A stretch of DNA of 64,000 bases. Origin: a virus. This document shows, one piece after another, positions 1 to 15,900 of this stretch (its first letter is position 1; each line of letters starts with the position of its first letter). The notes under the pieces were generated by a model. It was given only the letters and a program-made list of their open reading frames with translations, did not search any database and had not been told where the DNA came from. The DNA lies in the IMG/VR virus record IMGVR_UViG_3300046010_015054, positions 96,001-160,000 of that record. One strand, written 5' to 3'. The position numbers were made by a program, and so were the translations under genes.

Positions 1-1787
1 TAAGGTCTTTCACCTTTAGGTACATTAATACCATAATTTAATTCTTTAAATTCTAACCCTAAAATATCTGTTGCAGTTGCTTGCATTGGGATAGTATTAC
101 ATTGACGAGGGTGATAATTTGGGCTTTTCCAACCCCCATTTTCGTCTCTAAACCATCCTAATTTATAATGAGTAATACATTCAACAGCTGTTCCTGGGTT
201 GGTGAATTCTATGTTTTTGTAAGCTTCTAATCCTTGGAACCAATCATTATGGAATGTAGAAAGTATAACTTTACAATTATGTTTTTTAGCAAATTCAACA
301 ACATAAGGAACCCAACCAATGGTATCACCTATTGCTTTAGATTCTACCGTAATTAAAACTTTTTGATTAGTTAAATCTAATCTACTTGCTTCTTTACCAT
401 CAATTTTTATTACCCAAGGTACATAGTACTCTGTACTACATTCAACCCACATATTATTGTTAATGGTTTGTGAATGGTGTACTTTACCGGTTGCAGAATC
501 AATAAATTCTATAAAATAACTTTTGTTAATATTTCCTAAAATTTCTACTTTAGGTTTATTTAAATAACTAATATTTATTTTATTTTTATCTTCTACTTGA
601 TTATATTCATCTAAAAATTCTTGTAAAGTATTCCGACCAATTTCAGCTACTTTATCCCAATTAAAATTTTGATGGATAATTTCAGACTCTTTATGTGCAC
701 GTTTATAATGATCTTGATAATTTACGTAAGCATCTCTCATTACACGAGCTAAATCTTCAAAATCAGGTTCATAATAAGAACCTTCTACAAATTTTCCTTT
801 ATAATTTGGATCCTTGGCAGGTAATTCTCCCCATACTTTTACAGGTAATCCTTTACCTTCAGCAAATTCCATTTGACCAGAGCATGCTGAGTAAATAGCT
901 GGAGTACCACAAGCCATAGCCTCAATTAAAGGTAAATTCCATCCTTCACTACGAGCACAAGATAAAAATACATGACCTGTTTTTAAGTATTGAATGTAAT
1001 CTTCTCTAGAAGGAAAATGTACTACTTTGATGCGAGGATCTTCTAAACCATAATGCTTTAATCTATCTTCAGTAGTTTTTAAACCATCATCTGCAAATGG
1101 GTTATCAACCGAAAGTATTAAATCAACTTTCTCATCTGGTTTGAATTCTTTAAGAAAGGTTTCAATTATTTCTTTTGTAGATTTTCTATATTCCCAACGC
1201 CCAAACATTACAAATTTAAACCTATTATCCAAATATTCTTCTGGGAGTAATAGGTAGGGTTCAATTTTAAAGATATTAGTGTCTACACCCTCAGGTACAA
1301 CTTTTACTTTTTCAGCAGGCATACCTTGCTTAATAGTACATTCAGCTTGCCATTTTGAAGGTACCCAAATTTGATCAAATTCTTTTAATTTATTAAAAAA
1401 ATTTTCAGGTTGTAAAGTAGATTCCCAAACATTATATGCAATTTTAGGACCTACGTAATTATCATAAAAATAATGATGACCCGTAGCTTCTAAAATAATA
1501 TTAACATTATGTTTAAAATTATTTTCATAATTTTTATATATAGGAGAATCTTGCCTTTCGTAATCTACAAAAAGTGTTTGTTCAACTAATAATTTTTTAT
1601 CTAAATCATTTAAATAAGGTTCATTATTATGAGGTTCATCTTTATAACCTTCCCAAGTTTTACCTGCAGGAAAATTTCTAACTTTTACATCAAGATGTTT
1701 AGATAAATGTCTAAAAAAATCTCTTGTATGATTAGCGTAACCTGTAGGGCCTATATAAGGTCCGTGTGCATAAACTTTTGGTTTCAT
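1..1787 (-). CDS. GT4 glycosyltransferase fused to an autotransporter O-heptosyltransferase (AAH/TibC-like) domain; 3' end runs off the window
   Basis: Not in the ORF track because it has no stop in the window. Hand translation from ATG at 1787 gives MKPKVYAHGPYIGPTGYANHTR...FGRWEYRK...ARSEGWNLPLIEAMACGTP (GT-B/GT4 EX7E motif), then ESKAIGDTIGWVPYVVEFAKKHNCKVILSTFHNDWF, which resembles the GD..W.PY..F...H.C segment of AAH/TibC heptosyltransferases. Confidence 0.8.
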   Translation of the reverse strand, partial: MKPKVYAHGPYIGPTGYANHTRDFFRHLSKHLDVKVRNFPAGKTWEGYKDEPHNNEPYLNDLDKKLLVEQTLFVDYERQDSPIYKNYENNFKHNVNIILEATGHHYFYDNYVGPKIAYNVWESTLQPENFFNKLKEFDQIWVPSKWQAECTIKQGMPAEKVKVVPEGVDTNIFKIEPYLLLPEEYLDNRFKFVMFGRWEYRKSTKEIIETFLKEFKPDEKVDLILSVDNPFADDGLKTTEDRLKHYGLEDPRIKVVHFPSREDYIQYLKTGHVFLSCARSEGWNLPLIEAMACGTPAIYSACSGQMEFAEGKGLPVKVWGELPAKDPNYKGKFVEGSYYEPDFEDLARVMRDAYVNYQDHYKRAHKESEIIHQNFNWDKVAEIGRNTLQEFLDEYNQVEDKNKINISYLNKPKVEILGNINKSYFIEFIDSATGKVHHSQTINNNMWVECSTEYYVPWVIKIDGKEASRLDLTNQKVLITVESKAIGDTIGWVPYVVEFAKKHNCKVILSTFHNDWFQGLEAYKNIEFTNPGTAVECITHYKLGWFRDENGGWKSPNYHPRQCNTIPMQATATDILGLEFKELNYGINVPKGERP

Positions 1788-1788
1788 A

Positions 1789-2538
1789 TTATCTCATTAT
1801 TGAACAACCCCCATCTAGTCCTCTATATCCATCAAAACCATGATAAATAGGACAAATTGGAACTCCGTGATTTCTTAAATGCTGTCTGAGTAAAGTTTCA
1901 TTAACAAACATATCATAATAGTACTGGTAATATTCAGGGTTTACAAAGATTGTTCGTAACATTTCAGGAAAGACATTATGGTAGGTTTTCATAACATCAT
2001 ATCCCCCAACAGCAAAAGTATCATTAAGTTGATCAGCCATACCCCATCTATCAGGATATTCAAAAAAATTAACTGCTTCAGGGTTTACTTTAGTAATGTC
2101 TTCTAAGAAGATACAATTTTCAGCTACTCTATGTGTCCAAAGTAAATCATATCTTGTTTTTATTACCAAATCATATTTAATACCGGAATTTTCTAACAAA
2201 TCCCAAGATCGTTTTAAAGATAACCACATTCCCATTTGGGAATTTAAGCGTTGGTTATTTTGTCCTTTTAAATCTGTAGCATCAAACTTTATTGCTTTTT
2301 CAAATAAATGTTTTTTAGGCTGATACCAATCTAATAGATTTTTGTAAGTATTTTGATCAACATTATAAACACGTTGCAATTTACCTTCATTAAAAAAATC
2401 ATACTTGTAAAAATGTTTATCAACCCAAGCATGCATATACACATCAATATCATATCGATCTAAAAACCAACGTTTTAGTTCTTTAAAACCATGTTTGTAT
2501 CTACGTGGCTGACCACTAATTGTTAAAGCTATTTTCAT
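1789..2538 (-). CDS. Putative GT-A-like glycosyltransferase (SGxPR / YDxVIxxRxD family), paralogue 1
   Basis: MKIALTISGQPR, DVYMHAW, YDLVIKTRYDL and LNDTFAVG motifs; clearly paralogous to 2535-3299. Confidence 0.55.
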   Translation of the reverse strand: MKIALTISGQPRRYKHGFKELKRWFLDRYDIDVYMHAWVDKHFYKYDFFNEGKLQRVYNVDQNTYKNLLDWYQPKKHLFEKAIKFDATDLKGQNNQRLNSQMGMWLSLKRSWDLLENSGIKYDLVIKTRYDLLWTHRVAENCIFLEDITKVNPEAVNFFEYPDRWGMADQLNDTFAVGGYDVMKTYHNVFPEMLRTIFVNPEYYQYYYDMFVNETLLRQHLRNHGVPICPIYHGFDGYRGLDGGCSIMR

Positions 2539-3299
2539 CGAATAATATGGGCATGAAAATGTTTGGTTAAACTTTCAACATAATTTACCTCTACATTATT
2601 TTTTAGCATTACATGCCATTTTAAAAGACTTTCAGCAACAGTTTTATCCGCTGTACTTGTGACAGTTTTTAACCATTCACCATAATCTGGGTCTATAAAA
2701 ATGTAGTTAAGTATATAACAAAAATAATCAGAATAAATTTCAGCAATATGAGGTCCACTAACTATAAATTGATCATCAATTTCAGATGTTCGTTGAGGGA
2801 ATCCATTAATATCTGGGTATTTAAAGCAATTATATTTGTTAGGATCTAATTGAGTAATGTCTTTTAGAAAGATACATTTAGGAGATACATACTTAGTAAA
2901 TTGAAGATCAAATCTATATCTAATAATATAATCATATTCAATACCGGATTCACGTACTAAATTATAACAAGCATGAATTGAATAAGCAGCACTTAAAATA
3001 TTATGTAATTTATAATTTAAATGAGATCCGCGAATATCGGTTTCATCAAACGGTATAGGTGTTTGAAATTCGTATGCTTTAGGTTTATATAATTTTAAAA
3101 TTTTATCATAATCACTTTGTGTAAAAGTGTATGTTTTTTTTTCTAAAAAATCATGTCCAGTTTCAAAGACTGATGTAGTATCATACCAAGTATGGATGTA
3201 AACATCACAATCATACTTGTTTAAGAACCATTTTTTTAGTTCTTTAAAACCTAAATCATAATTGCGGGGTAAACCGCTTATACAAATTGCTACTTTCAT
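2535..3299 (-). CDS. Putative GT-A-like glycosyltransferase, paralogue 2
   Basis: MKVAICISGLPR, DVYIHTW, YDYIIRYRFDL and IDDQFIVSG motifs; 4-nt overlap with the next gene. Confidence 0.55.
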   Translation of the reverse strand: MKVAICISGLPRNYDLGFKELKKWFLNKYDCDVYIHTWYDTTSVFETGHDFLEKKTYTFTQSDYDKILKLYKPKAYEFQTPIPFDETDIRGSHLNYKLHNILSAAYSIHACYNLVRESGIEYDYIIRYRFDLQFTKYVSPKCIFLKDITQLDPNKYNCFKYPDINGFPQRTSEIDDQFIVSGPHIAEIYSDYFCYILNYIFIDPDYGEWLKTVTSTADKTVAESLLKWHVMLKNNVEVNYVESLTKHFHAHIIR

Positions 3300-3910
3300 T
3301 ATCTATAATGACCTCCTCCTAACCAAAGAACAAATGATTTACGAGTACCTTTAATTACAGGTGTAACTCTATGAAGCATAAATGATGGGAAAATAATAAC
3401 AGTACCCTTACCTTTAGGACCTGTTAAAGGCATTTGCCCACCATTCCAAATTTCTAAATTACCCCCTTCATATTCTTCAGGGCCAGAAAGTTGAACTGTA
3501 ACTGAGAGTTTTCTAAAAGGCATAAATCCTTGGCTACCTATATCCATATGCCAATCATAGTGACCTTTATTAGTACCATAGTATTCAGTATATTGAATTT
3601 GTTCTGGCATAAAGTTTAGATCAAAATGATACATTTCTTTATTAGCTTCATATGCCATTAAACCAATTTTATCGTAAATCCATTTTGTATTTTCTGAAAA
3701 TGGAATCCATTTAATACTGGAATTGCGAGCATCTAAATTTTCACCTTGATCTTGTCCACCTTGCTCAGTAACAGCTGTTTGGAATTGCATTTCGGCTACT
3801 TGAGATTCAATTTGAGATAACTCATCAGTAGTAAAACCTTCTTGAAACCAATAATAATTACATTGGTTTACGGGATTTTCTAAAGGGAATGTATAATTAA
3901 CATTCATCAT
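3299..3910 (-). CDS. 2OG-Fe(II) oxygenase, prolyl-4-hydroxylase/PKHD-like
   Basis: HxD (WHMD), RKLSVTVQL, YEGG, distal His with 2OG-binding Arg (HRVTPV..GTRKSFVLW). Confidence 0.88.
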   Translation of the reverse strand: MMNVNYTFPLENPVNQCNYYWFQEGFTTDELSQIESQVAEMQFQTAVTEQGGQDQGENLDARNSSIKWIPFSENTKWIYDKIGLMAYEANKEMYHFDLNFMPEQIQYTEYYGTNKGHYDWHMDIGSQGFMPFRKLSVTVQLSGPEEYEGGNLEIWNGGQMPLTGPKGKGTVIIFPSFMLHRVTPVIKGTRKSFVLWLGGGHYR

Positions 3911-3921
3911 GATTTTTTAAA

Positions 3922-6273
3922 TTAAGGATTTGTAAAAGAAATTAAAATATATCGGGTTCCTTCGATTACAGGACGTCCCCCGTGTTTGTGAGTAATTTGA
4001 CCAGGATGAGCCATAGCATATCCTTTTCTTTGAGGTTGGATTGTTAATTTATAGCGAGGGATAAAAGTACCACCTCCTTTAAATTCATCATTTAACCTAA
4101 CATTTAATGTAATAGCTGAGCTATCGTGGTGAATATCTAAGCTACCTTGATTATTTGTATCATATTTAGCAATAAAGTTTTCACTTTTTGAAGTTTGCCA
4201 ATTATTACCTTCAAGTTCCCAAAACCAAATCCAAATAGGATAAACAAATTGTTCTAGAACTTTTTGATAGATTTTTTGCATCTTTAAACTTTCCATAGTT
4301 TGGTCTGTTGTAGGATAAAAAGTATGTCTATCAGTTTTCCATTCATTTTGTTCAGCTAAAGCTATTACTTCATCACAGAATTTTTCAGTAAATAATGGGA
4401 ATTCAATAATATTAGGACCAATTTCATCAGTCATAAGCTTATATTGTCCTTTTAAAATATAAGGATCAATATATTTTTTACACCACTCTTCCCAGTTACT
4501 ATCATCTAAAATTTCAATTATAGGTTTATTACCTTCAGTTACTCCTACACTTTTATCTTGTTCAAAATAATTAACTTTTGGAGCAGCTACTTTTAATTTA
4601 GGTAGATCAGCAAAATCTGCTAAAATATCTTGACGATGAGTCATACCAAAAGTAATTGATAAAAACTCATCTAAAGCAAATATTTTACTTTTATAACGAG
4701 GGATCCACTCTTCTACTAGCTTTTGAACACCTGAACGTGATAAAATGTAGGCGTGTGAGTTATATGAATAATCAGGCTCTACCCAATTTCTAAATCCTTC
4801 TATAGGTTTTTCTAAATCAGGTTTAAGAGCATTACGTCCTAAATAAATCATATCATATCCTTTATCTAAAAGAGATTTTATATTTTCCCAGTTTACTGGG
4901 AGTTGTTCTTTAAAATCTTCTTCTAGAATAAAAGTTATTTCTCTATCATATTCATAAGCATCAACCCAAGCATCAATATGAGCTAAGGCACATCCTACTT
5001 CTCCATCTGTTACTTCGCGATTCCACCAATGACAACTACTTTCGATTTTCCAATTTGGGTGTTTTTTAACACCAAATTTTACTAAATCTTTTTGTGTTAA
5101 AGTGCGATAATCAAAACCAGTTTTTACCCAGTAGTTATAAAAACCAGGCATAGATAATTTATCGCATTTATCTTTAATTTGCTGAGTTTCATTTAAAGCT
5201 ATAACGTAAAAATGATCTAAATTCATATTTAATTTTAATAATAAAGGTATCCAGTTTCTTATTGTTACATACCACCAGTCAAGTGAATATACGTAATTTT
5301 GTGCTAATTGCCAATTTATATTGTCATTTTCATTAAGAGCATTAAAACCATGTAATGTTTCTTTTAAACCACCCCATTCCCAAGTAATAGGTAATACTTG
5401 ATGGCCTAACATTTCTAAAGCTGTTAAGCAAAATGTTTCTTCATATGTTGAAGGATAGTACCAATATTGACTATCCGCCATTAATTTATATAATTCTTTT
5501 TCGGGTAATGTACCTAAAAATTCTACATCATCCAAACTATCTACCCATTCTTTATAATATTGATTATAATATTCTAAACCATATTCAGGAGTACAAATTT
5601 TTAAGCTAGAATCAGGGGCTTCTTGTTTAATTTGAGGCCAATCTTCTAATACTCTAGCTAAACCTCTTTCAGCATGAGATGAATAGATATATTGATTTTT
5701 ATTTTTTTGATATAATTGAGAAGTTGGTTTTGGGAAGATTAAACCTTTTATTGCTTGGGGTTCAGGAAAAGTTTTTATAATTTTGCTAGCATCAATACCA
5801 TAACCAATAATTTTAATTTTACTTTCGGTTTCTGGGTATTGTTGGAGCCAAATTTCTCTATGCCATTTAGTTAAGCATATAATATATTTAAGTTTAGGAT
5901 GGATTAATAATTCTCTATGATTAGGTATTTCTTCTCCATTCCACCAATTATAATAATCGGTATTACTAAGCCAAAATATAGAATTTTTATAATTAAAATC
6001 TTCAAATTCTTTTAAATAATGTATATAATTTATTCCAATAATAGTATCAACTGAAGATTCTTCTTGTTTAAATTGTTTAGTAGTTCTATATTTTACATTA
6101 TCAAAATCTCCAGGAATAACATTTCCAACTACCCAAATATAATATTCAGGGAGTTTGGCTAATTCTTGTGCTAAATAATAAGTGGTTTTTTCTGTACCTC
6201 CTAAACCGGTAGTTTCTATAGAAGAAGGACCCCAAGGAGTTTTGTGATAACCTGTGTATAAAACTATTTTCAT
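3922..6273 (-). CDS. Tri-domain enzyme: GT4 + GT25 (COLGALT-like) + PLOD-like lysyl hydroxylase
   Basis: N-terminal GLGGTE and PSTYEETFCLTALE (GT4). Middle GEVGCALAH..ILEED..YDMIYLGR..VEPDYSY..HAYILS (GT25/procollagen galactosyltransferase-like). C-terminal FPLFTEKFC..PTTD..HHDSS..GGGT..HPGQITHKHGG..GTRYILISF.NP (PLOD-type 2OG domain). The start is probably ATG 6273 (MKIVLYTG) rather than 6309, because 6284-6323 holds promoter and terminator elements. Confidence 0.85.
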   Translation of the reverse strand: MKIVLYTGYHKTPWGPSSIETTGLGGTEKTTYYLAQELAKLPEYYIWVVGNVIPGDFDNVKYRTTKQFKQEESSVDTIIGINYIHYLKEFEDFNYKNSIFWLSNTDYYNWWNGEEIPNHRELLIHPKLKYIICLTKWHREIWLQQYPETESKIKIIGYGIDASKIIKTFPEPQAIKGLIFPKPTSQLYQKNKNQYIYSSHAERGLARVLEDWPQIKQEAPDSSLKICTPEYGLEYYNQYYKEWVDSLDDVEFLGTLPEKELYKLMADSQYWYYPSTYEETFCLTALEMLGHQVLPITWEWGGLKETLHGFNALNENDNINWQLAQNYVYSLDWWYVTIRNWIPLLLKLNMNLDHFYVIALNETQQIKDKCDKLSMPGFYNYWVKTGFDYRTLTQKDLVKFGVKKHPNWKIESSCHWWNREVTDGEVGCALAHIDAWVDAYEYDREITFILEEDFKEQLPVNWENIKSLLDKGYDMIYLGRNALKPDLEKPIEGFRNWVEPDYSYNSHAYILSRSGVQKLVEEWIPRYKSKIFALDEFLSITFGMTHRQDILADFADLPKLKVAAPKVNYFEQDKSVGVTEGNKPIIEILDDSNWEEWCKKYIDPYILKGQYKLMTDEIGPNIIEFPLFTEKFCDEVIALAEQNEWKTDRHTFYPTTDQTMESLKMQKIYQKVLEQFVYPIWIWFWELEGNNWQTSKSENFIAKYDTNNQGSLDIHHDSSAITLNVRLNDEFKGGGTFIPRYKLTIQPQRKGYAMAHPGQITHKHGGRPVIEGTRYILISFTNP

Positions 6274-6283
6274 AAACCTATAT

Positions 6284-6314
6284 ATAATATAAATATAAAA
6301 GGGGGACATTCAAA
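6284..6314 (-). promoter_or_regulatory. Bacteroidota-type sigma70 promoter candidate (TTTG-N19-TATATTAT), overlapping an ATATTTAT motif at 6289-6296
   Basis: Same spacing as three other sites in the window; resembles the TTTG(-33)/TAnnTTTG(-7) consensus. Confidence 0.5.
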
Positions 6315-6323
6315 GTCCCCCTT
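6297..6323 (-). terminator. Intrinsic terminator after collagen chain A
   Basis: GGGGGAC/GTCCCCC stem with a 7-nt loop, followed by a T-run on the minus strand. Confidence 0.75.
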
Positions 6324-6344
6324 ATTAAAAATACTTATAAATTT

Positions 6345-9300
6345 TTAAACTAATTCTAGTTTTTCAAATTTAACATCAATTTTGCTATAGTCTACAGCAT
6401 AATAACCATTTTCAGCTATTACCACAGCGTCTTCAAATTGTGTTCCTAATAATTCTTGAGCCATTACACCAATATATCTAGTATTAGGATCATTAATGTA
6501 ATTATACTCGTAAATATTAATACCTAATTTAGATACACCTATTTTTACAATATTTTCTTTTAATCTAATATCTGATGTTTTTCTGTATTGAAGATAACCA
6601 TCGGCAAAATCTAATGTTTGTGAAAAATTTACTGTAAATAATTTAAAATTTACAGTTAAACCTATAGGTCCAGTACCTTCAGCCCCAATAAGACCTCTAG
6701 AACCAATAGGACCACGAGGGCCGATAGGACCTCTAGGACCTTGAGGACTAGAACCAACAGCACCAATAGGACCACGAGGACCAATATTACCAATAGGACC
6801 TTGAGGGCCTTGAATAGTACTAGCTGGGCCTCTATTGCCCCGAGGGCCTTGTACTCCTATAGGTCCTATAGGACCTTGTGGGCCCGGACCAATAGGACCA
6901 ATTATACCTCTAGGACCTTGGGGTGCAACGCCAATTGGGCCAATATTACCAATAGGACCAATTGGACCCCATGGACCACGAGGACCAATAGGACCTTGTA
7001 TGCCTTGTGGACCTTGTGGGCCCGGGCCTATAGGACCAATAATGCCAGTAGGTCCAATAGGACCTCTAGGACCAATGTTACCAATAGGGCCTTGAATGCC
7101 CTGTGGACCTTGTGGGCCAGGACCAATTGGACCAATATTACCAATAGGACCAATTGGACCCCATGGACCACGAGGACCAATAGGACCTTGTATGCCTTGT
7201 GGACCTTGTGGGCCCGGGCCTATAGGACCAATAATACCTTGAGGACCAATAGGACCTCTAGGGCCTACAATATCAGTTACATCTCCTGCAATGCCTTTAG
7301 GACCTTGAATGCCTGTAGGGCCTTGAATACCTTGTGGGCCTTGAGGACCAGGTCCAATAGGACCTATAATACCTTGGGGTCCTCTAGGACCAATAGGACC
7401 AATGTTACCAATAGGGCCTTGAATACCTTGTGGACCTTGAGGTCCAGGACCTATAGGGCCGATAATACCTTGAGGACCACGAGGACCAATGTTACCAATA
7501 GGGCCAATTGGGCCTATTATACCCCGTGGACCAATAGGACCAGGTCCAATATTACCAATAGTACCTTGTGGACCTATATTTCCAATTGGACCCTGAATAC
7601 CTTGAGGACCACGAGGTCCAATAGGTCCTTGTGGGCCTGGTCCAATAGGACCAATAATGCCAGTAGGTCCAATAGGACCCCAAGGACCTCGCGGACCAAT
7701 AGGGCCTATAATACCCTGAGGGCCTTGAGGACCAGGACCTATAGGGCCTATTATACCTTGAGGACCACGAGGACCAATAGGACCTTGAATATCATTTATA
7801 TCACCCGGAATACCTTTAGGACCTATAATACCTGTGGGGCCTTGAATGCCTTGTGGACCTTGTGGGCCAGGACCTATAGGACCTATAATACCCTGAGGTC
7901 CTCTAGGGCCAATAGGACCAATGTTACCAATAGGGCCTTGAATGCCCTGTGGACCTTGTGGGCCAGGACCTATAGGACCTATAATACCCTGAGGTCCTCT
8001 AGGGCCAATAGGACCAATGTTACCAATAGGACCTTGAATGCCCTGTGGACCTTGTGGGCCTGGGCCAATAGGGCCGATAATACCTTGAGGACCAATATTA
8101 CCCCGAGGACCTTGTATTCCTTGAGGGCCTTGAATACCCTGAGGTCCTTGTGGACCTGGGCCAATTGGACCTTGAATTCCAATAGGTCCAATAGGACCCC
8201 AAGGACCTCGTGGGCCAATAGGGCCTATAGTACCTTGAGGACCTTGTGGGCCCGGGCCTATAGGACCAATAATACCTTGAGGACCAATAGGACCACGAGG
8301 ACCTATAGCATCAGTTACATCTCCAGCAATACCTTTAGGACCTATAATACCTGTGGGGCCTTGAATGCCTTGTGGACCTTGAGGTCCGGGACCTATAGGA
8401 CCAATAATACCCTGAGGTCCCCGAGGACCAATAGGACCTTGTGTACCTTGCGGGCCTTGAATACCCTGAGGCCCTTGTGGGCCTGGACCAATTGGGCCTT
8501 GGATACCTAAAGGACCTCTAGGACCAATAGGACCAATGTTACCAATAGGACCTTGAATACCTCGCGGGCCTTGTGGACCCGGACCAATAGGACCTATAAT
8601 ACCTTGAGGACCACGAGGGCCAATAGGGCCTTGAAGATCACCAGTATCACCTGGGATACCTTTAGGACCTTGTATGCCTGTAGGTCCTTGGGTACCTTGC
8701 GGGCCTTGTGGACCTGGACCAATAGGACCGATAATACCTTGAGGTCCTCTAGGACCAATAGGCCCTTGAATACCTTGTGGACCCTGAATGCCCTGTGGGC
8801 CTTGAGGTCCAGGACCGATTGGACCCTGAATGCCTAAAGGTCCTCTAGGACCAATTGGGCCTATATTGCCAATAGGACCTTGAATACCTTGTGGACCTTG
8901 AGGTCCAGGGCCTATAGGACCAATAATACCTTGTGGACCTCTAGGACCAATAGGTCCCTGAGTACCTTGTGGGCCTTGTATGCCTTGTGGGCCTTGTGGT
9001 CCAGGTCCAATGGGGCCTTGAATTCCAATAGGTCCAATAGGACCCCATGGACCTATTAAACCACGAGGACCTTGAATACCTTGTGGGCCTTGTGGTCCTG
9101 GTCCAATAGGGCCTATAATACCTGTAGGACCTTGAATACCTTGAGGTCCTATTAAACCTCTTGGACCTTGTGGACCTTGTGGTCCTGGTCCAATAGGACC
9201 TATAATTCCTTGTGGTCCACGAGCGCCAATAGGACCTTGTATACCTTGTGGACCTTGTGGACCTTGTGGTCCTGGTCCAATAGGACCAATTATACCTCTT

Positions 9301-9707
9301 GGTCCTTGTAAGCCTTGTGGTCCTTGAGTACCTTGTGGACCTTGAATACCACGTGGACCTTGCGGTCCTTGATTGCCTCTAGGACCTTGTGTACCCCTAG
9401 GACCTTGTGGTCCTTGTAAATCAATTGGTGTTCCTGTTTTACTAGTAACAATTAAAGCTTCAGCAGGTGCATCAAATCGTAAAGCACCCGTTCTATTAGA
9501 AACAAGAACTGTATTAGGTACTACAAATCCAGCATTACTATTAATTTCAATACCTGTTGGTTTAATAGTAAATATATCAACACTACCACTTTGGACTGCT
9601 AAATCTCCTGTAACATTATTAAAAGTAAAATCTATAGCTTTACCATTTGAACTTTCAATAAATTCAAGGCTACCTGATTTAGGTATTATTTTAACATTTT
9701 TAGCCAT
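6345..9707 (-). CDS. Collagen-like fibre protein (chain A) with C-terminal peptidase S74 intramolecular chaperone
   Basis: About 930 aa of Gly-X-Y with periodic GP interruptions; C-terminal SDIRLKENI...IGVMAQEL...[10 protein letters not shown] is the autocleaving chaperone motif. Confidence 0.9.
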
Positions 9708-9713
9708 AGATTA

Positions 9714-12700
9714 TTAAGGGTTATAAGCTGTTAATACTCCGGCTACATAATTAAATGAAGGGTTACCTCCACTAGTATTAAGAGCAAAAGTTGTAGTAAC
9801 TCCAGTTGGTGCATTATTACCTGCTGGGCCCTGAGGACCAATGGGGCCTTGAGGACCAATAGGACCAATAGGACCAATAGCGCCTGTAGCACCTGAAGGG
9901 CCAATAGGACCTTGTGGGCCAATGGGTCCAATGTTACCAATAGGACCTTGAGCACCAGATGCACCAACAGGACCAATAGGACCCTGAATACCTTGTGGGC
10001 CTATATTTCCAATAGGACCAGTTGGGCCAATAGGACCAATAGGACCTTGAGGACCAATAGGGCCTGTAGGACCGATAGGGCCAATAGGACCAATATTACC
10101 TTGAGGGCCTTGTGGTCCAATGGGGCCAATATTACCAATTGGACCTTGGGGGCCAATAGGACCTGTAGGGCCAATAGGACCAATAGGACCTTGTGCACCA
10201 ATAGGTCCGATAGGGCCAATAGGACCAATATTACCAATTGGACCTTGAGGACCAATAGGGCCTGTAGGACCAATTGGGCCAATAGGGCCAATATTACCTT
10301 GGGGACCTTGAGGACCTATAGGACCGATATTACCAATTGGACCTTGCACACCAATAGGACCTGTAGGACCAATAGGACCGATAGGACCCTGTGGGCCGAT
10401 AGGACCAATAGGGCCTTGGGGGCCTGGAGCTTGATTATCTCCTTTAGGTCCAATTGGGCCTTGAGCGCCAATAGGGCCTTGAGGGCCAATAGGACCAGTT
10501 GGACCGATTGGACCAATAGGACCCTGTGGACCAATAGGACCAATAGGACCTATGGGACCAATATTACCAATAGGACCTTGAGGGCCAATAGGACCAGTTG
10601 GGCCAATTGGACCGATTGGACCTTGAGGACCAATTGGACCAATGTTACCAATTGGACCGATTGGACCAATAGGACCTTGAGGACCAATAGGGCCTGTAGG
10701 ACCAATAGGGCCAATAGGACCTTGTGGACCAATGGGGCCAATATTACCAATTGGACCTTGAGGACCAATAGGACCAATAGGACCAATGGGGCCAGTAGGT
10801 CCTATAGGACCAATAGGACCTTGGTTACCTTGTGGACCTTGTGGACCAATTGGACCAATAGGACCAATAGGACCTTGAGGGCCAATAGGTCCAGTAGGAC
10901 CAATGGGGCCGATAGGACCTTGAGGACCAATAGGACCGATAGGACCAATGGGGCCAGGTGCTTGGTTGTCTCCTTTAGGACCAATAGGACCTTGTACTCC
11001 AATAGGACCTTGAGGACCAATTGGACCCGTAGGACCAATAGGACCGATAGGGCCTTGAGGACCAATTGGGCCAATAGGGCCAATAGGACCAATATTACCA
11101 ATTGGACCTTGAGGACCAATAGGACCTGTAGGACCGATAGGGCCAATAGGGCCTTGGGGTCCGATAGGACCAATAGGACCTATAGGACCAATATTACCAA
11201 TTGGACCTTGGGGGCCAATAGGACCTGTAGGACCGATAGGACCGATAGGACCTTGTGGGCCGATTGGACCAATAGGACCAATTGGGCCTTGAGCTCCAAT
11301 AGGACCTTGTGGACCTATAGGACCTGTAGGACCAATAGGACCGATAGGGCCTTGGTTTCCTTGAGGACCCTGTGGGCCAATAGGACCGATAGGACCGATA
11401 GGACCTTGTGGGCCGATTGGACCAGTTGGTCCGATAGGACCAATTGGACCTTGAGGGCCGATAGGTCCAATAGGACCTTGAGGACCAGGTGCTTGGTTAT
11501 CTCCTTTAGGTCCAATAGGACCTTGTACTCCAATAGGACCTTGTGGACCAATCGGGCCAGTAGGACCAATTGGGCCAATAGGACCCTGTGGGCCAATAGG
11601 ACCAATGGGACCAATAGGGCCTTGAGCTCCAATAGGACCTTGAGGACCAATTGGACCTGTAGGACCGATAGGACCTATAGGACCTTGAGGACCTTGAGGA
11701 CCAATAGGGCCAATAGGGCCTATAGGACCTATGGGACCTTGTGGACCGATCGGACCAGTTGGACCAATTGGACCAATAGGGCCTTGGGGGCCAATCGGAC
11801 CAATAGGACCGATAGGGCCCGGAGCTTGGTTGTCTCCTTTAGGTCCAATAGGACCTTGTGCACCTATAGGACCTTGTGGGCCAATAGGACCAGTTGGGCC
11901 AATTGGACCGATTGGACCTTGAGGACCGATAGGACCTATAGGACCAATTGGGCCTTGAGCTCCAATAGGACCTTGTGGACCTATAGGGCCAGTTGGGCCA
12001 ATTGGACCTATGGGACCTTGAGGACCAATTGGACCAATAGGACCGATGGGGCCGATAGGACCTATGGGACCTTGAGGGCCAATTGGACCAGTTGGACCAA
12101 TTGGACCAATAGGACCTTGTGGGCCGATAGGACCAATCGGACCGATAGGACCAATTGGACCAATAGGACCTTGAGGACCGATAGGACCCGTAGGACCAAT
12201 TGGGCCAATAGGGCCTTGGTTACCTATAGGACCTTGTGGACCAATTGGACCTTGAGGACCGATTGGACCTTGTGGGCCGATAGGACCTGTAGGACCGATA
12301 GGACCAATTGGGCCTTGAGCACCAATAGGACCCTGTGGACCAATGGGGCCAATTGGGCCTTGTGGGCCTTGAGGACCTGTAGGACCGATAGGACCAATTG
12401 GACCTTGAGGACCGATAGGGCCAATAGGGCCGATAGGACCCTGTGGGCCAATAGGACCAATAGGACCTGTAGGGCCGATAGGACCGATAGGGCCCTGAGG
12501 ACCAATAGGACCAATAGGGCCTATGGGACCTTGTGCTCCAATAGGGCCTTGTGGTCCAATAGGACCAATAGGACCTTGTGGGCCTTGTGGACCTTGAGGA
12601 CCAATTGGACCTTGAGGACCACCACCTGTTATGGTTCCAGCTGTACCTTCTACTTCTAAAGTATTTGTACCACTATTAAACCAAACTTGTCCTGGGATTG

Positions 12701-12914
12701 GTGAAGAAGGAGAGGATCCTACAACAGGTAATACAAAAGTAGCATTATTAGCAATGGCTAAACTGCCACTATCAATAGTAGCAATGTTAACAGAACCACT
12801 TTTGATTGTTAATTGACCCGCTGATGCAAAATCAAATTTAATTTCTTTACCTACAGCAGTATCTTGGAAATTTAAGCTACCTGATTTTGGTATTATCTGT
12901 ACGTTTTTTGCCAT
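9714..12914 (-). CDS. Collagen-like fibre protein (chain B), no chaperone domain
   Basis: About 930 aa of (GPI/GPQ/GPT)n; the N-terminus [16 protein letters not shown] is nearly identical to that of chain A. Confidence 0.9.
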
Positions 12915-12929
12915 CTTTTATATATACTA

Positions 12930-12937
12930 ATAAATAT
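12930..12937 (-). promoter_or_regulatory. Putative late promoter ATATTTAT upstream of the collagen genes
   Basis: One of 16 exact copies (plus 2 variants) found just upstream of start codons. Confidence 0.7.
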
Positions 12938-15900
12938 TAGCCTTTTACGGGATATTCAACTATTAATTTCGGATCTACTTTTCTTTCTGCAAATACTACG
13001 TAATAAGCGTTTACTTCTCCACATTCACATGCTACCACGACTTGTTCAACTGACGCTGATAATACGTAGTGAGTACATGATTTTCCAATAGGTGTTAATT
13101 GTACTGATAGGCTATCATGGTATACTAAATCTTTCCAGTAATCAGGTAATGTAATTACTCCATCTCCTTCTACTTTACCTCTAATATACACACCAGTTTC
13201 TGGTCCCTCAAGCACTGAGTAGCGAAGTCTCCATCCTTCTTTTGAAGGGTGTGGTATATCAAAGTTTTTAACGTTACCATTGATTTCATTAAAGTTATTA
13301 ATATTAGAAGTTCCGGCACCATCAATATTACCAGTACCATCCATAGTAATGTTTCTAACATTACTAACATCAGTATTGTTCATATCAATGCCACCTTGAA
13401 CACTAATATCTCCGTTAACTCCTAATGTTGTGCCAGTAAATGTTAAGTTAGCTTCACCATTAATTAGACCAGCGGTACCAGTTGCGGTTAATACGTAGTT
13501 GTTAGTATTGTTGTTTATAGTAGCAGCGCCTGACGTACCTGATGAACCTGATGAGCCACTAGAACCGCTAGTACCACTAGAACCGGATGAACCTGATGAA
13601 CCGCTTGTACCTGAAGAGCCTGATGTACCACTAATGCCTATACCTGATGAACCTGAAGAACCTGATGTTCCTGAAGTGCCATTTACACCTGATAAACCTG
13701 AAGAACCAGATGTTCCAGAAGAGCCGCTTGAACCAGATGAGCCTGAGCTACCACTTGAGCCACTTGTACCTGATGAACCTGAAGTTCCTGATGAACCTGA
13801 AGTTCCTGATGAACCTGATGAGCCTGAACTGCCAGAAGATCCTGAACTGCCTGAAGTACCAGAGGAGCCTGAAGAACCACTAGTTCCTGATGAGCCTGAG
13901 CTACCTGAAGAGCCACTTGAACCTGATGTACCAGAAGAGCCTGAACTACCACTTGTGCCTGATGAGCCTGAGCTACCTGAAGATCCAGAAGAGCCACTAG
14001 TACCTGATGAACCTGAACTTCCTGACGTGCCTGATGAACCTGATGAGCCTGATGAGCCTGAAGTACCAGATGAGCCACTTGAGCCAGATGTTCCTGAAGA
14101 ACCTGAACTACCTGATGAACCTGATGAACCTGAAGTACCACTAGTTCCGTTTATACCTGATAAACCTGAAGAACCAGATGTTCCGCTTGAACCAGATGAG
14201 CCTGAGCTGCCACTTGTACCTGAAGAGCCTGAAGTTCCTGATGAACCACTAGTTCCTGAAGAGCCTGAACTACCTGAAGAACCAGAACTTCCACTAGTAC
14301 CTGATGTTCCGCTTGAACCTGAAGTACCTGATGAGCCTGAACTTCCACTTGAACCTGATGAACCTGAACTACCTGAAGTACCTGAAGTTCCTGAAGTACC
14401 ACTAGAACCAGATGTTCCTGATGAGCCTGAAGAACCAGAGCTGCCTGAAGATCCTGAAGTACCAGACGAACCTGAGCTTCCGCTAGTTCCTGATGAACCA
14501 CTAGAACCTGAGCTGCCTGATGAGCCTGATGTTCCTGAAGAACCACTTGTACCTGAAGTACCGGATGAACCACTTGAACCAGATGAACCTGAACTACCTG
14601 AAGTTCCTGATGTACCGTTAATACCACTTAAACCTGATGAGCCACTTGTACCAGATGAACCTGAGCTACCTGATGAGCCTGAAGAGCCACTAGTACCTGA
14701 AGTACCTGAACTGCCTGAAGTACCTGAACTACCGCTTGAACCTGATGAACCAGAGCTTCCGCTAGTTCCTGAGGTACCACTTGAACCTGATGTTCCTGAT
14801 GAACCACTTGAACCAGATGAACCTGAAGAGCCACTTGTACCTGAAGTACCAGATGAACCACTTGTTCCTGATGAGCCTGAAGAACCTGATGAACCAGAAG
14901 AACCACTTGTACCTGAAGTACCTGATGAACCACTAGTACCAGAAGTACCTGATGAACCTGAAGAGCCACTTGAGCCACTTGAACCAGAAGTTCCTGAAGA
15001 ACCTGAAGTACCTGAAGAACCTGAGCTACCACTTGTACCTGATGAGCCACTTGAACCTGAAGTTCCAGATGAGCCACTTGTTCCAGAAGTACCATTAATA
15101 CCACTTAAACCTGATGATCCAGATGTACCTGAGGTACCAGATGAACCTGATGATCCTGATGTGCCTGATGTTCCGCTTGAACCTGAAGTGCCTGATGTTC
15201 CTGATGAACCAGATGAACCAGAACTTCCACTAGTACCTGATGTACCGCTTGAGCCAGAAGTTCCTGATGAACCTGAGCTACCTGAAGATCCTGATGAGCC
15301 GCTAGTTCCTGAAGTTCCTGATGAACCGCTTGAACCTGATGTACCTGAAGAGCCACTTGAACCACTTGAACCGGAAGTACCACTTGTACCTGAAGTACCA
15401 TTTATACCTGAAAGGCCTGATGAACCAGATGTTCCTGAAGAACCTGAAGTTCCGCTAGTTCCTGATGAACCTGAGCTGCCTGATGTTCCTGATGAACCTG
15501 AAGTACCAGATGAGCCATCTGTACCACTAGTTCCTGATGAGCCACTAGAACCTGAACTACCACTTGAACCAGATGTTCCGCTTGAACCTGAAGTTCCGCT
15601 TGAACCTGAAGAGCCACTTGAACCACTAGTTCCTGAAGTACCAGATGAACCACTTGTTCCTGATGAACCTGAACTACCTGAACTGCCTGATGTACCGCTA
15701 GTACCTGAAGTTCCGTTTATACCGCTTAAACCTGAAGAACCTGATGTTCCTGAAGAGCCAGATGTACCTGAAGTACCTGAACTGCCTGATGAGCCCGAGC
15801 TACCACTTGTACCAGATGAACCATCTGTACCAGATGTACCACTTGAACCTGAAGAACCTGAAGTACCACTTGTACCACTTGTTCCTGAAGAACCTGAAGA

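Follow-up and report, generated by a model that had tools for sequence, protein, structure and literature searches.

A single gene of an uncultured T4-like phage (record IMGVR_UViG_3300046010_015054) encodes a protein that, judged by homology, joins an animal-type collagen lysyl hydroxylase (LH) to two sugar transferases. The gene lies on the minus strand at 3922..6273 of the 64,000-nucleotide stretch that was analysed, here called the window, and encodes 783 amino acids in the domain order GT4-GT25-LH. It is part of a stop-free open reading frame (ORF, 3922-6309, minus strand) with a translation of 795 residues, in which Met13 corresponds to the start at 6273. The fusion is probably a self-contained enzyme for the modification of collagen lysines that acts on the phage's own fibre chains. 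Of the points behind this reading, the homology, the fold, the intact catalytic residues and the conserved linkage to Lys-bearing collagen genes are shown directly. In textbooks, animal collagen is characterised by hydroxylysine and the Glc-Gal sugar attached to it. To our knowledge, hydroxylation and glycosylation of collagen lysines have so far been described for animals and giant viruses only, and the mimivirus protein L230 is the only assayed exception to hydroxylysine glycosylation being an animal trait.

The C-terminal domain (3925..4512, minus strand; residues 600-795) is a true LH-family domain, specific for this family across the whole 190 amino acids. The last ~190 residues (607-795) matched LH3/PLOD3 with E 9e-26 to 1e-26 and the LH domain of mimivirus L230 with E 1e-25 when compared with the PDB by phmmer; the next family, prolyl 4-hydroxylase (P4H), followed at just E 0.014. 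No model in Pfam captures this C-terminus. The modelled domain matches the L230 structures 6ax6/9nev with a TM-score of 0.87, a root mean square deviation of 1.6-2.0 Å and 34% identity (Foldseek). Catalytic residues were checked in an alignment of 26 full-length homologs with 27-83% identity, and those of the GT4, GT25 and LH domains are all invariant. In the LH domain they comprise the Fe triad H727/D729/H776, aligned with H825/D827/H877 of L230, and the 2-oxoglutarate (2OG) ligands Y716 and R786, which correspond to Y814 and R887. The roles of these L230 residues have been established by mutagenesis (PMC5802723). A preliminary description of the window had proposed a PLOD-like lysyl hydroxylase; the PDB matches, the fold and the invariant active site agree with this, and the family identity held against the possibility of a generic 2OG oxygenase. 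The motifs quoted in that description, HHDSS (727-731), HPGQITHKHGGRPVIEGTRYILISF (768-792), GEVGCALAH, YDMIYLGR and RNWVEPDYSYNSHAYILS, were all found in the protein.

The middle domain (4549..5226, minus strand; residues 362-587) is a COLGALT1-like GT25 domain of the GT-A type. Residues 366-466 match PF01755 (GT25) in Pfam with 30.1 bits, above the cutoff of 24, and residues 398-557 match the catalytic C-terminal domain of COLGALT1 with E 1e-13 and 54 bits (phmmer, PDB). The metal motif is E463-E464-D465 and the base motif D547-E548. E463 and D465 are equivalent to E435 and D437 of GLT25D1 and D547 to D522, and all three are invariant in the homologs. In GLT25D1 the first two residues bind Mn2+ and the third is the catalytic base (PMC12987934). 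The middle position of the metal motif is Glu (E464) here and Asp (D436) in GLT25D1; E548 is the Glu of the base motif, E523 in GLT25D1. The COLGALT-like character proposed earlier is thus supported by the COLGALT1 match, the Pfam score and the invariant motifs. Kinship with the GT25 enzymes of lipopolysaccharide (LPS) biosynthesis was not seen, as no bacterial GT25 structure in the PDB matched the domain at E 0.1 or better and no LPS-type GT25 family of NCBIfam matched it; closeness to COLGALT relative to the LPS-type enzymes was judged by PDB and NCBIfam scores only.

The N-terminal domain (5275..6273, minus strand; residues 13 to ~345) is a retaining GT-B domain of the GT4 type, which confirms the extra domain noted in the preliminary description. 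Its Pfam matches (residues ~119-323) are above the cutoffs both for PF00534 (Glycos_transf_1; 28.7 bits, cutoff 26.4) and for PF13692 (Glyco_trans_1_4; 30.8 bits, cutoff 27). E291 and E299 of the EX7E motif and R215 are invariant in the homologs. Foldseek matched the domain to MshA, PimA, glycogen synthase and the alpha-1,2-glucosyltransferase tll1591, and weak matches to exopolysaccharide enzymes were obtained with NCBIfam. Two relatives bear on the role of the domain. The 694-aa relative P0176 has the order GT_PLOD-GT25-LH, with GT_PLOD, the second-sugar domain of LH3, in the same N-terminal position as GT4 here. On contig L108 (1224-3395) the parts are split: a GT4 gene that shares 45% identity with the domain stands alone, and a separate GT25-LH gene follows after 193 bp. 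GT_PLOD and GT4 are both retaining enzymes in the CAZy classification. By analogy with the domain position in P0176 and the split locus of L108, the chances that the GT4 domain extends the first sugar are about even. On L109 (1474-3558) a 694-aa GT_PLOD-GT25-LH protein is encoded, with no collagen gene within the 6.7-kb contig.

The AlphaFold2 model of the whole protein, made with 77 homologs as input, has a mean predicted local distance difference test score of 92.4, with weak linkers at residues 181-200 and 588-596. The predicted template modelling score is 0.65, and the arrangement of the domains is not fixed by the model. Foldseek listed LH3 (E 3e-26), the LH domain of L230, COLGALT1 (E 1.6e-16) and retaining GT4 enzymes, in this order. 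PF25342 (GT_PLOD), which does match L230-like proteins, had no match in the fusion protein in Pfam. The three-domain architecture was found in more than 120 metagenome clusters at 90% identity and is the commonest full-length form found. None of these clusters is named as a hydroxylase; the names given are 'hypothetical', 'GT25' and 'cell wall biosynthesis'. In a tblastn search of 50,697 deposited phage genomes no record covered more than 24% of the fusion protein, and therefore no cultured phage with the GT4-GT25-LH fusion was found.

The fusion gene is located just downstream of two genes for collagen-like fibre chains on the same strand, and these chains are the predicted substrates. Chain A (6345..9707, minus strand; 1120 aa) has the lysines K349, K458, K631 and K804 (codons 8661-8663, 8334-8336, 7815-7817 and 7296-7298), all in G-P-K-G and two triplets ahead of an interruption of the repeat. 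Chain B (9714..12914, minus strand; 1066 aa) has K359, K470, K647 and K824 (codons 11838-11840, 11505-11507, 10974-10976 and 10443-10445), all in GPK-GDNQAP and one triplet ahead of an interruption. No further Lys is present in the ~920 residues of each collagen domain. The earlier statement that Lys occurs only in G-X-K-G in both domains is therefore exact, with eight sites that are all G-P-K-G. The lysines are spaced almost alike in the two chains, by 109/173/173 residues in chain A and by 111/177/177 in chain B, and the breaks match between the chains. Should chains A and B join in one helix, the modified residues would be gathered at four nodes. A 2642-aa Gly-Ser/Thr fibre encoded upstream has no Lys at all.

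Relatives of the protein are encoded by 325 IMG/VR loci, 79 of which were fetched for neighbourhood analysis. Upstream sequence of at least 2.5 kb was available for 63 loci; in 62 of these the enzyme gene is preceded by a same-strand collagen ORF, 51 times at a distance of at most 1.5 kb, so that the adjacency to collagens described for the window is found there and in nearly all of these loci. The linkage holds both in close relatives and in a distant group with 33-36% identity, many of them ~60-kb contigs, where Lys is found in up to about half of the collagen triplets. In 72 unique neighbouring collagens with 17,896 strict Gly-X-Y triplets, Lys occurs 5 times at X and 5058 times at Y; the corresponding numbers for Arg are 125 and 410. 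X-Lys-Gly is the site recognised by LH and by GLT25D1 (PMC12987934).

In relatives of the phage, absence of the enzyme goes together with absence of Lys. A search with the N-terminal domain of the collagens, which had no match in deposited phages, gave syntenic relatives that do not have the fusion gene (L096-L098, L101 and L104). In these the Ser/Thr fibre, a Pro-bearing collagen and the downstream 2OG oxygenase (44-49% identity) are still present, and not a single Lys occurs among the 162-270 triplets of their collagens. A profile hidden Markov model search of four whole records of such relatives found the small oxygenase only. More relatives without the fusion were obtained in a search with the gene for a GT4 fused to an Aah/TibC-like domain (described below), and the sole fibres neighbouring that gene are of the Lys-free Ser/Thr type. 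A modular arrangement emerges, in which the Lys collagen accompanies the LH fusion and the Ser/Thr fibre accompanies the GT4-TibC-like gene; the small oxygenase may go with Pro at the X position.

The record from which the window was taken (bases 96001-160000) is 170,105 bp long and has an IMG/VR completeness rating of 100%. All long ORFs in the window are on the minus strand, and a major head protein, a portal and a T4-type large terminase were identified there with PHROGs. The closest cultured relative by terminase is Flavobacterium phage vB_FspM_immuto, with 59.6% identity. The source is an uncultured tailed phage of the T4-like kind with a bacterial host. A terminator-like hairpin (6299..6323, minus strand; 9-bp stem with 6 GC pairs, T tail) is found between the stop codon of collagen A and the start of the enzyme gene. 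It is the sole minus-strand site of its kind within 3000-13200, and the upstream ATG of the fusion ORF (6309) is in its loop. The homologs are 783 aa long. Because they align from Met13 and the earlier ATG falls in the hairpin loop, 6273, the start given in the preliminary description, is likely the true one. The hairpin may keep expression of the enzyme lower than that of the fibres.

From these observations we infer the substrate, the order of the steps, the sugars and the acceptor of the GT4 domain. The enzyme would act on the fibre chains inside the infected cell, ahead of triple-helix formation. The LH domain would use Fe2+, 2-oxoglutarate and O2 to hydroxylate the Y-position Lys of X-Lys-Gly at the eight sites, four per chain, beside the breaks in the Gly-X-Y repeat. 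The inverting GT25 domain would then add a first hexose, Gal or Glc, to the new hydroxyl. The retaining GT4 domain would probably add a second sugar, as a non-homologous stand-in for the glucose-adding GT-A domain of LH3.

Several observations weigh against this mechanism or limit how far it can be taken. Eight target lysines are few for an enzyme of 783 amino acids, and few independent lineages underlie the observation that enzyme and Lys are absent together. At the dimer contact of L230, Leu873 enters an aromatic pocket of Y798, Y801 and Y831 (PMC5802723); here this pocket is only partly retained, with I772 and W704 kept, Y798 replaced by G701 and Y831 by I733. The acceptor cleft of GLT25D1 has K470 and a Tyr-Trp motif (Y494/W495), and the enzyme has a lid loop (Y561-E580) (PMC12987934). 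In the phage protein K470 is replaced by Asn493 and W495 by Asn517, the Tyr is retained, and the lid loop falls outside the aligned region. Neither the acceptor recognition nor the donor sugar of the human enzyme is transferable, and the domain, COLGALT-like by its sequence, is not assignable as a galactosyltransferase with the same acceptor recognition. L230, a bifunctional collagen lysyl hydroxylase and hydroxylysine glucosyltransferase (Luther et al. 2011), transfers glucose and not galactose (PMC9614988). The proposal in the preliminary description that the protein would galactosylate hydroxylysine is therefore not justified, since L230 uses glucose and the acceptor cleft is changed.

The position of the lysines is also less telling than it appears. 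Viral collagen loci sampled by a DNA pattern for (G-x-K)4, irrespective of LH, have 1100 Lys at Y and 78 at X, a general habit of viral collagens, and an LH is nearby in just 4-5 of the 42 loci. Three complete or near-complete phage records have Lys only at Y and no LH domain anywhere. In the control pattern (G-K-x)4 the 16 viral collagen loci have 147 Lys at X and 86 at Y, and no LH was found in the stretches fetched for them. Lys-Gly-Asp/Glu makes up 32% of the Lys sites, against 12% in the background. This sequence forms a helix-stabilising charge pair, and its enrichment therefore gives an alternative reason for Lys at Y. Lys confined to Y was dropped as a signature of the enzyme, as complete phage genomes without LH show it and Lys-Gly-Asp/Glu is enriched. 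The Lys position fits the enzyme site and is no evidence alone, because phages without LH share the pattern; the argument draws on homology, intact active sites, near-universal synteny and co-absence.

Read the other way, the same three points (phages without LH that have Lys only at Y, the enriched charge pair, and Lys at Y as the general viral pattern) would suit a linkage that reflects nothing but a shared fibre or late-gene module. The lysines would then serve helix stability, and the enzyme would modify another Lys target or no fibre Lys at all. This is improbable, given that a collagen precedes the gene in nearly every locus across phage groups that are ~34% identical and differ in genome size, that the syntenic relatives without the fusion have collagens free of Lys, and that X-Lys-Gly is the exact recognition site of LH and GLT25D1. 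More weight is due to the view that LH and GT25 act on the fibre lysines as proposed and that GT4 serves another acceptor, either Ser/Thr of the fibre or a different protein, although we regard this too as rather unlikely. The window does encode the 2642-aa Gly-Ser/Thr fibre and other glycosyltransferases, the model gives no fixed domain arrangement (0.65), and the acceptors of GT4 enzymes are very diverse. Yet GT4 stays fused in the distant phages with 33-36% identity, where the 10 kb upstream showed no Ser/Thr fibre, fibres of this type go along with the GT4-TibC-like gene instead, and in P0176 it is GT_PLOD that takes the N-terminal position.

Database names point elsewhere. 'LPS biosynthesis' and 'cell wall biosynthesis' are the names given by Pfam and JGI, GT4 enzymes are common in polysaccharide synthesis, and the weak exopolysaccharide matches in NCBIfam would fit an auxiliary, host-takeover gene that remodels the LPS or capsule of the host, with an oxygenase acting on an unrelated small molecule or protein. 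Such a role is very improbable. The GT25 domain matches COLGALT1 (54 bits) and neither a bacterial GT25 structure (E <=0.1) nor an LPS family of NCBIfam, the oxygenase domain is of the LH type throughout its 190 amino acids, and the gene lies within the fibre module, on the same strand, with a presence that tracks Lys collagens. Modification of the phage's own fibre lysines accounts best for the gene.

Directly downstream of the fusion is a gene for a 2OG-Fe(II) oxygenase of the PKHD/P4H type (3299..3910, minus strand; 203 aa), which is a conserved partner: of the 43 loci left after dereplication, 34 have it in this place. The loci that lack it all have collagens with Pro at no more than 3.5% of the X positions (median 0.2%, against 42% where the gene is present), and the gene also adjoins Pro collagens in relatives without the LH fusion. 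The association with X-position Pro has a raw p of 1.4e-5, but there are only 4 independent contrasts and it was rejected as not significant. The gene is a tentative candidate for a collagen prolyl hydroxylase. Cyanophages and pelagiphages commonly encode members of the PKHD/P4H-type oxygenase family.

Two paralogous DUF7796 / phrog_13607 genes (1789-2538 and 2535-3299, minus strand) are situated between the oxygenase gene and the GT4-TibC-like gene. The pair is conserved in all close relatives with 48-90% identity, and no function was found for DUF7796. The GT4-TibC-like gene itself (3-1787, minus strand) encodes a GT4 fused to an Aah/TibC-like domain (TIGR04414, E 1.4e-19). Its relatives (loci L348-L364) adjoin Lys-free Gly-Ser/Thr fibres in phages without the LH fusion, and its occurrence appears to follow the Ser/Thr fibre rather than Lys collagens.

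Two other kinds of neighbourhood were observed. In the Lys-free relative L097 (12365-19742, plus strand) a collagen gene is followed by genes for a protein with a concanavalin A-like lectin domain, a 2OG oxygenase, three FkbM-type methyltransferases and a radical SAM/SPASM protein, which are a candidate for a different modification set. In another group of loci (L114, L125, L127, L132, L136, L147, L149, L157, L158, L161, L165, L166, L168, L178, L182, L184 and L120) an irregular (G)GKN repeat, for example MNGKYGKNGGKNGGKNG... on L136, is found 1-2 kb from at least three tandem genes for LH-like 2OG oxygenases on the opposite strand. These oxygenases have ~230-250 aa and match the LH profile with E 1e-12 to 1e-18. 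The true reading frame is unsure because some copies carry in-frame stops. The loci may correspond to the neighbourhoods of tandem dioxygenases in cyanophages described by Iyer et al. 2010.

The phylogenetic tree of 86 LH domains (quick IQ-TREE, unrooted) has a branch with 98% support in the Shimodaira-Hasegawa-like approximate likelihood ratio test that divides all phage-type LH domains from a set of giant-virus and animal sequences. Besides two PLODs from animals and a single protist sequence, the latter set contains L230-like sequences of giant viruses, including mimivirus and Tupanvirus. In the phage-type set, forms with one, two or three domains and those that bear GT_PLOD are mixed with one another. 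Because the tree is unrooted, no direction of transfer can be claimed; the LH genes of phages are not recent copies of an animal or mimivirus gene. It is possible, if doubtful, that an extensive, ancient repertoire of enzymes for the hydroxylation and glycosylation of collagen Lys resides in tailed phages and, probably, in the bacteria they infect, that hydroxylysine-linked glycans predate animals, and that the third step was invented at least twice, as the GT-B domain of GT4 and as the PLOD GT-A domain of animals and mimivirus.

If the proposed function is true, this chemistry is widespread in aquatic tailed phages, whose fibres bear sugar-decorated hydroxylysine, at few sites at defined breaks in the present phage and in up to half of the triplets in others. 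The evolutionary origin of the PLOD/COLGALT machinery would become testable, and a compact, soluble single-chain enzyme would be usable for making hydroxylated and glycosylated recombinant collagens in bacteria.

The literature searches found no report of lysyl hydroxylases in phages or of phage hydroxylysine. A review from 2022 describes prokaryotic collagens as mostly without hydroxylation or glycosylation and does not mention hydroxylysine (PMC8968730). Described enzymes of prokaryotes or their viruses that modify a collagen-like surface fibre act on Pro or Thr.

In animals the pathway runs from Lys to Hyl, Gal-Hyl and Glc-Gal-Hyl. The human pair LH3/PLOD3 and COLGALT1/GLT25D1 (6fxk, 8zgc, 9evj, 9u7h) shares with the phage protein the same three proposed steps, the X-Lys-Gly site and homologous LH (E 1e-26) and GT25 catalytic domains, with the metal and Asp-Glu base motifs kept. 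In animals, however, the steps are divided over two proteins that form a complex in the endoplasmic reticulum, and it is a GT-A domain of LH3 that attaches the second sugar, whereas in the phage all three modules are in one cytoplasmic chain and the third is a non-homologous GT-B domain. The inactive N-terminal GT domain of COLGALT1 is absent from the phage protein.

Another close known system is mimivirus L230, in which a GT25-type transferase likewise precedes a C-terminal LH in one viral polypeptide, with an identical Fe triad and identical 2OG ligands, in a virus that encodes collagen-like proteins. The GT25+LH fusion, as preliminarily described, was confirmed, but the assayed L230 already carries this combination, so that the principle itself has a precedent. 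L230-type proteins comprise GT25, a PLOD GT domain, an accessory domain and LH in ~900 aa. The phage protein is without the PLOD GT and accessory domains and has the N-terminal GT4 (GT-B) domain instead, and its host is a bacterium, not an amoeba. Other phage-type forms are GT25-LH (~440 aa), GT25-GT_PLOD-LH (~640 aa), GT_PLOD-GT25-LH (694 aa) and stand-alone LH; these phage and bacterial proteins belong to the same phage-type LH clade, and GT4 as the third module sets the present protein apart from them. The kind of enzyme is already known, from the assayed L230 and the solved LH3/COLGALT1 complex; what is new is the tailed-phage setting, the compact chain, from which the PLOD GT and accessory domains are missing, and the GT-B third module.

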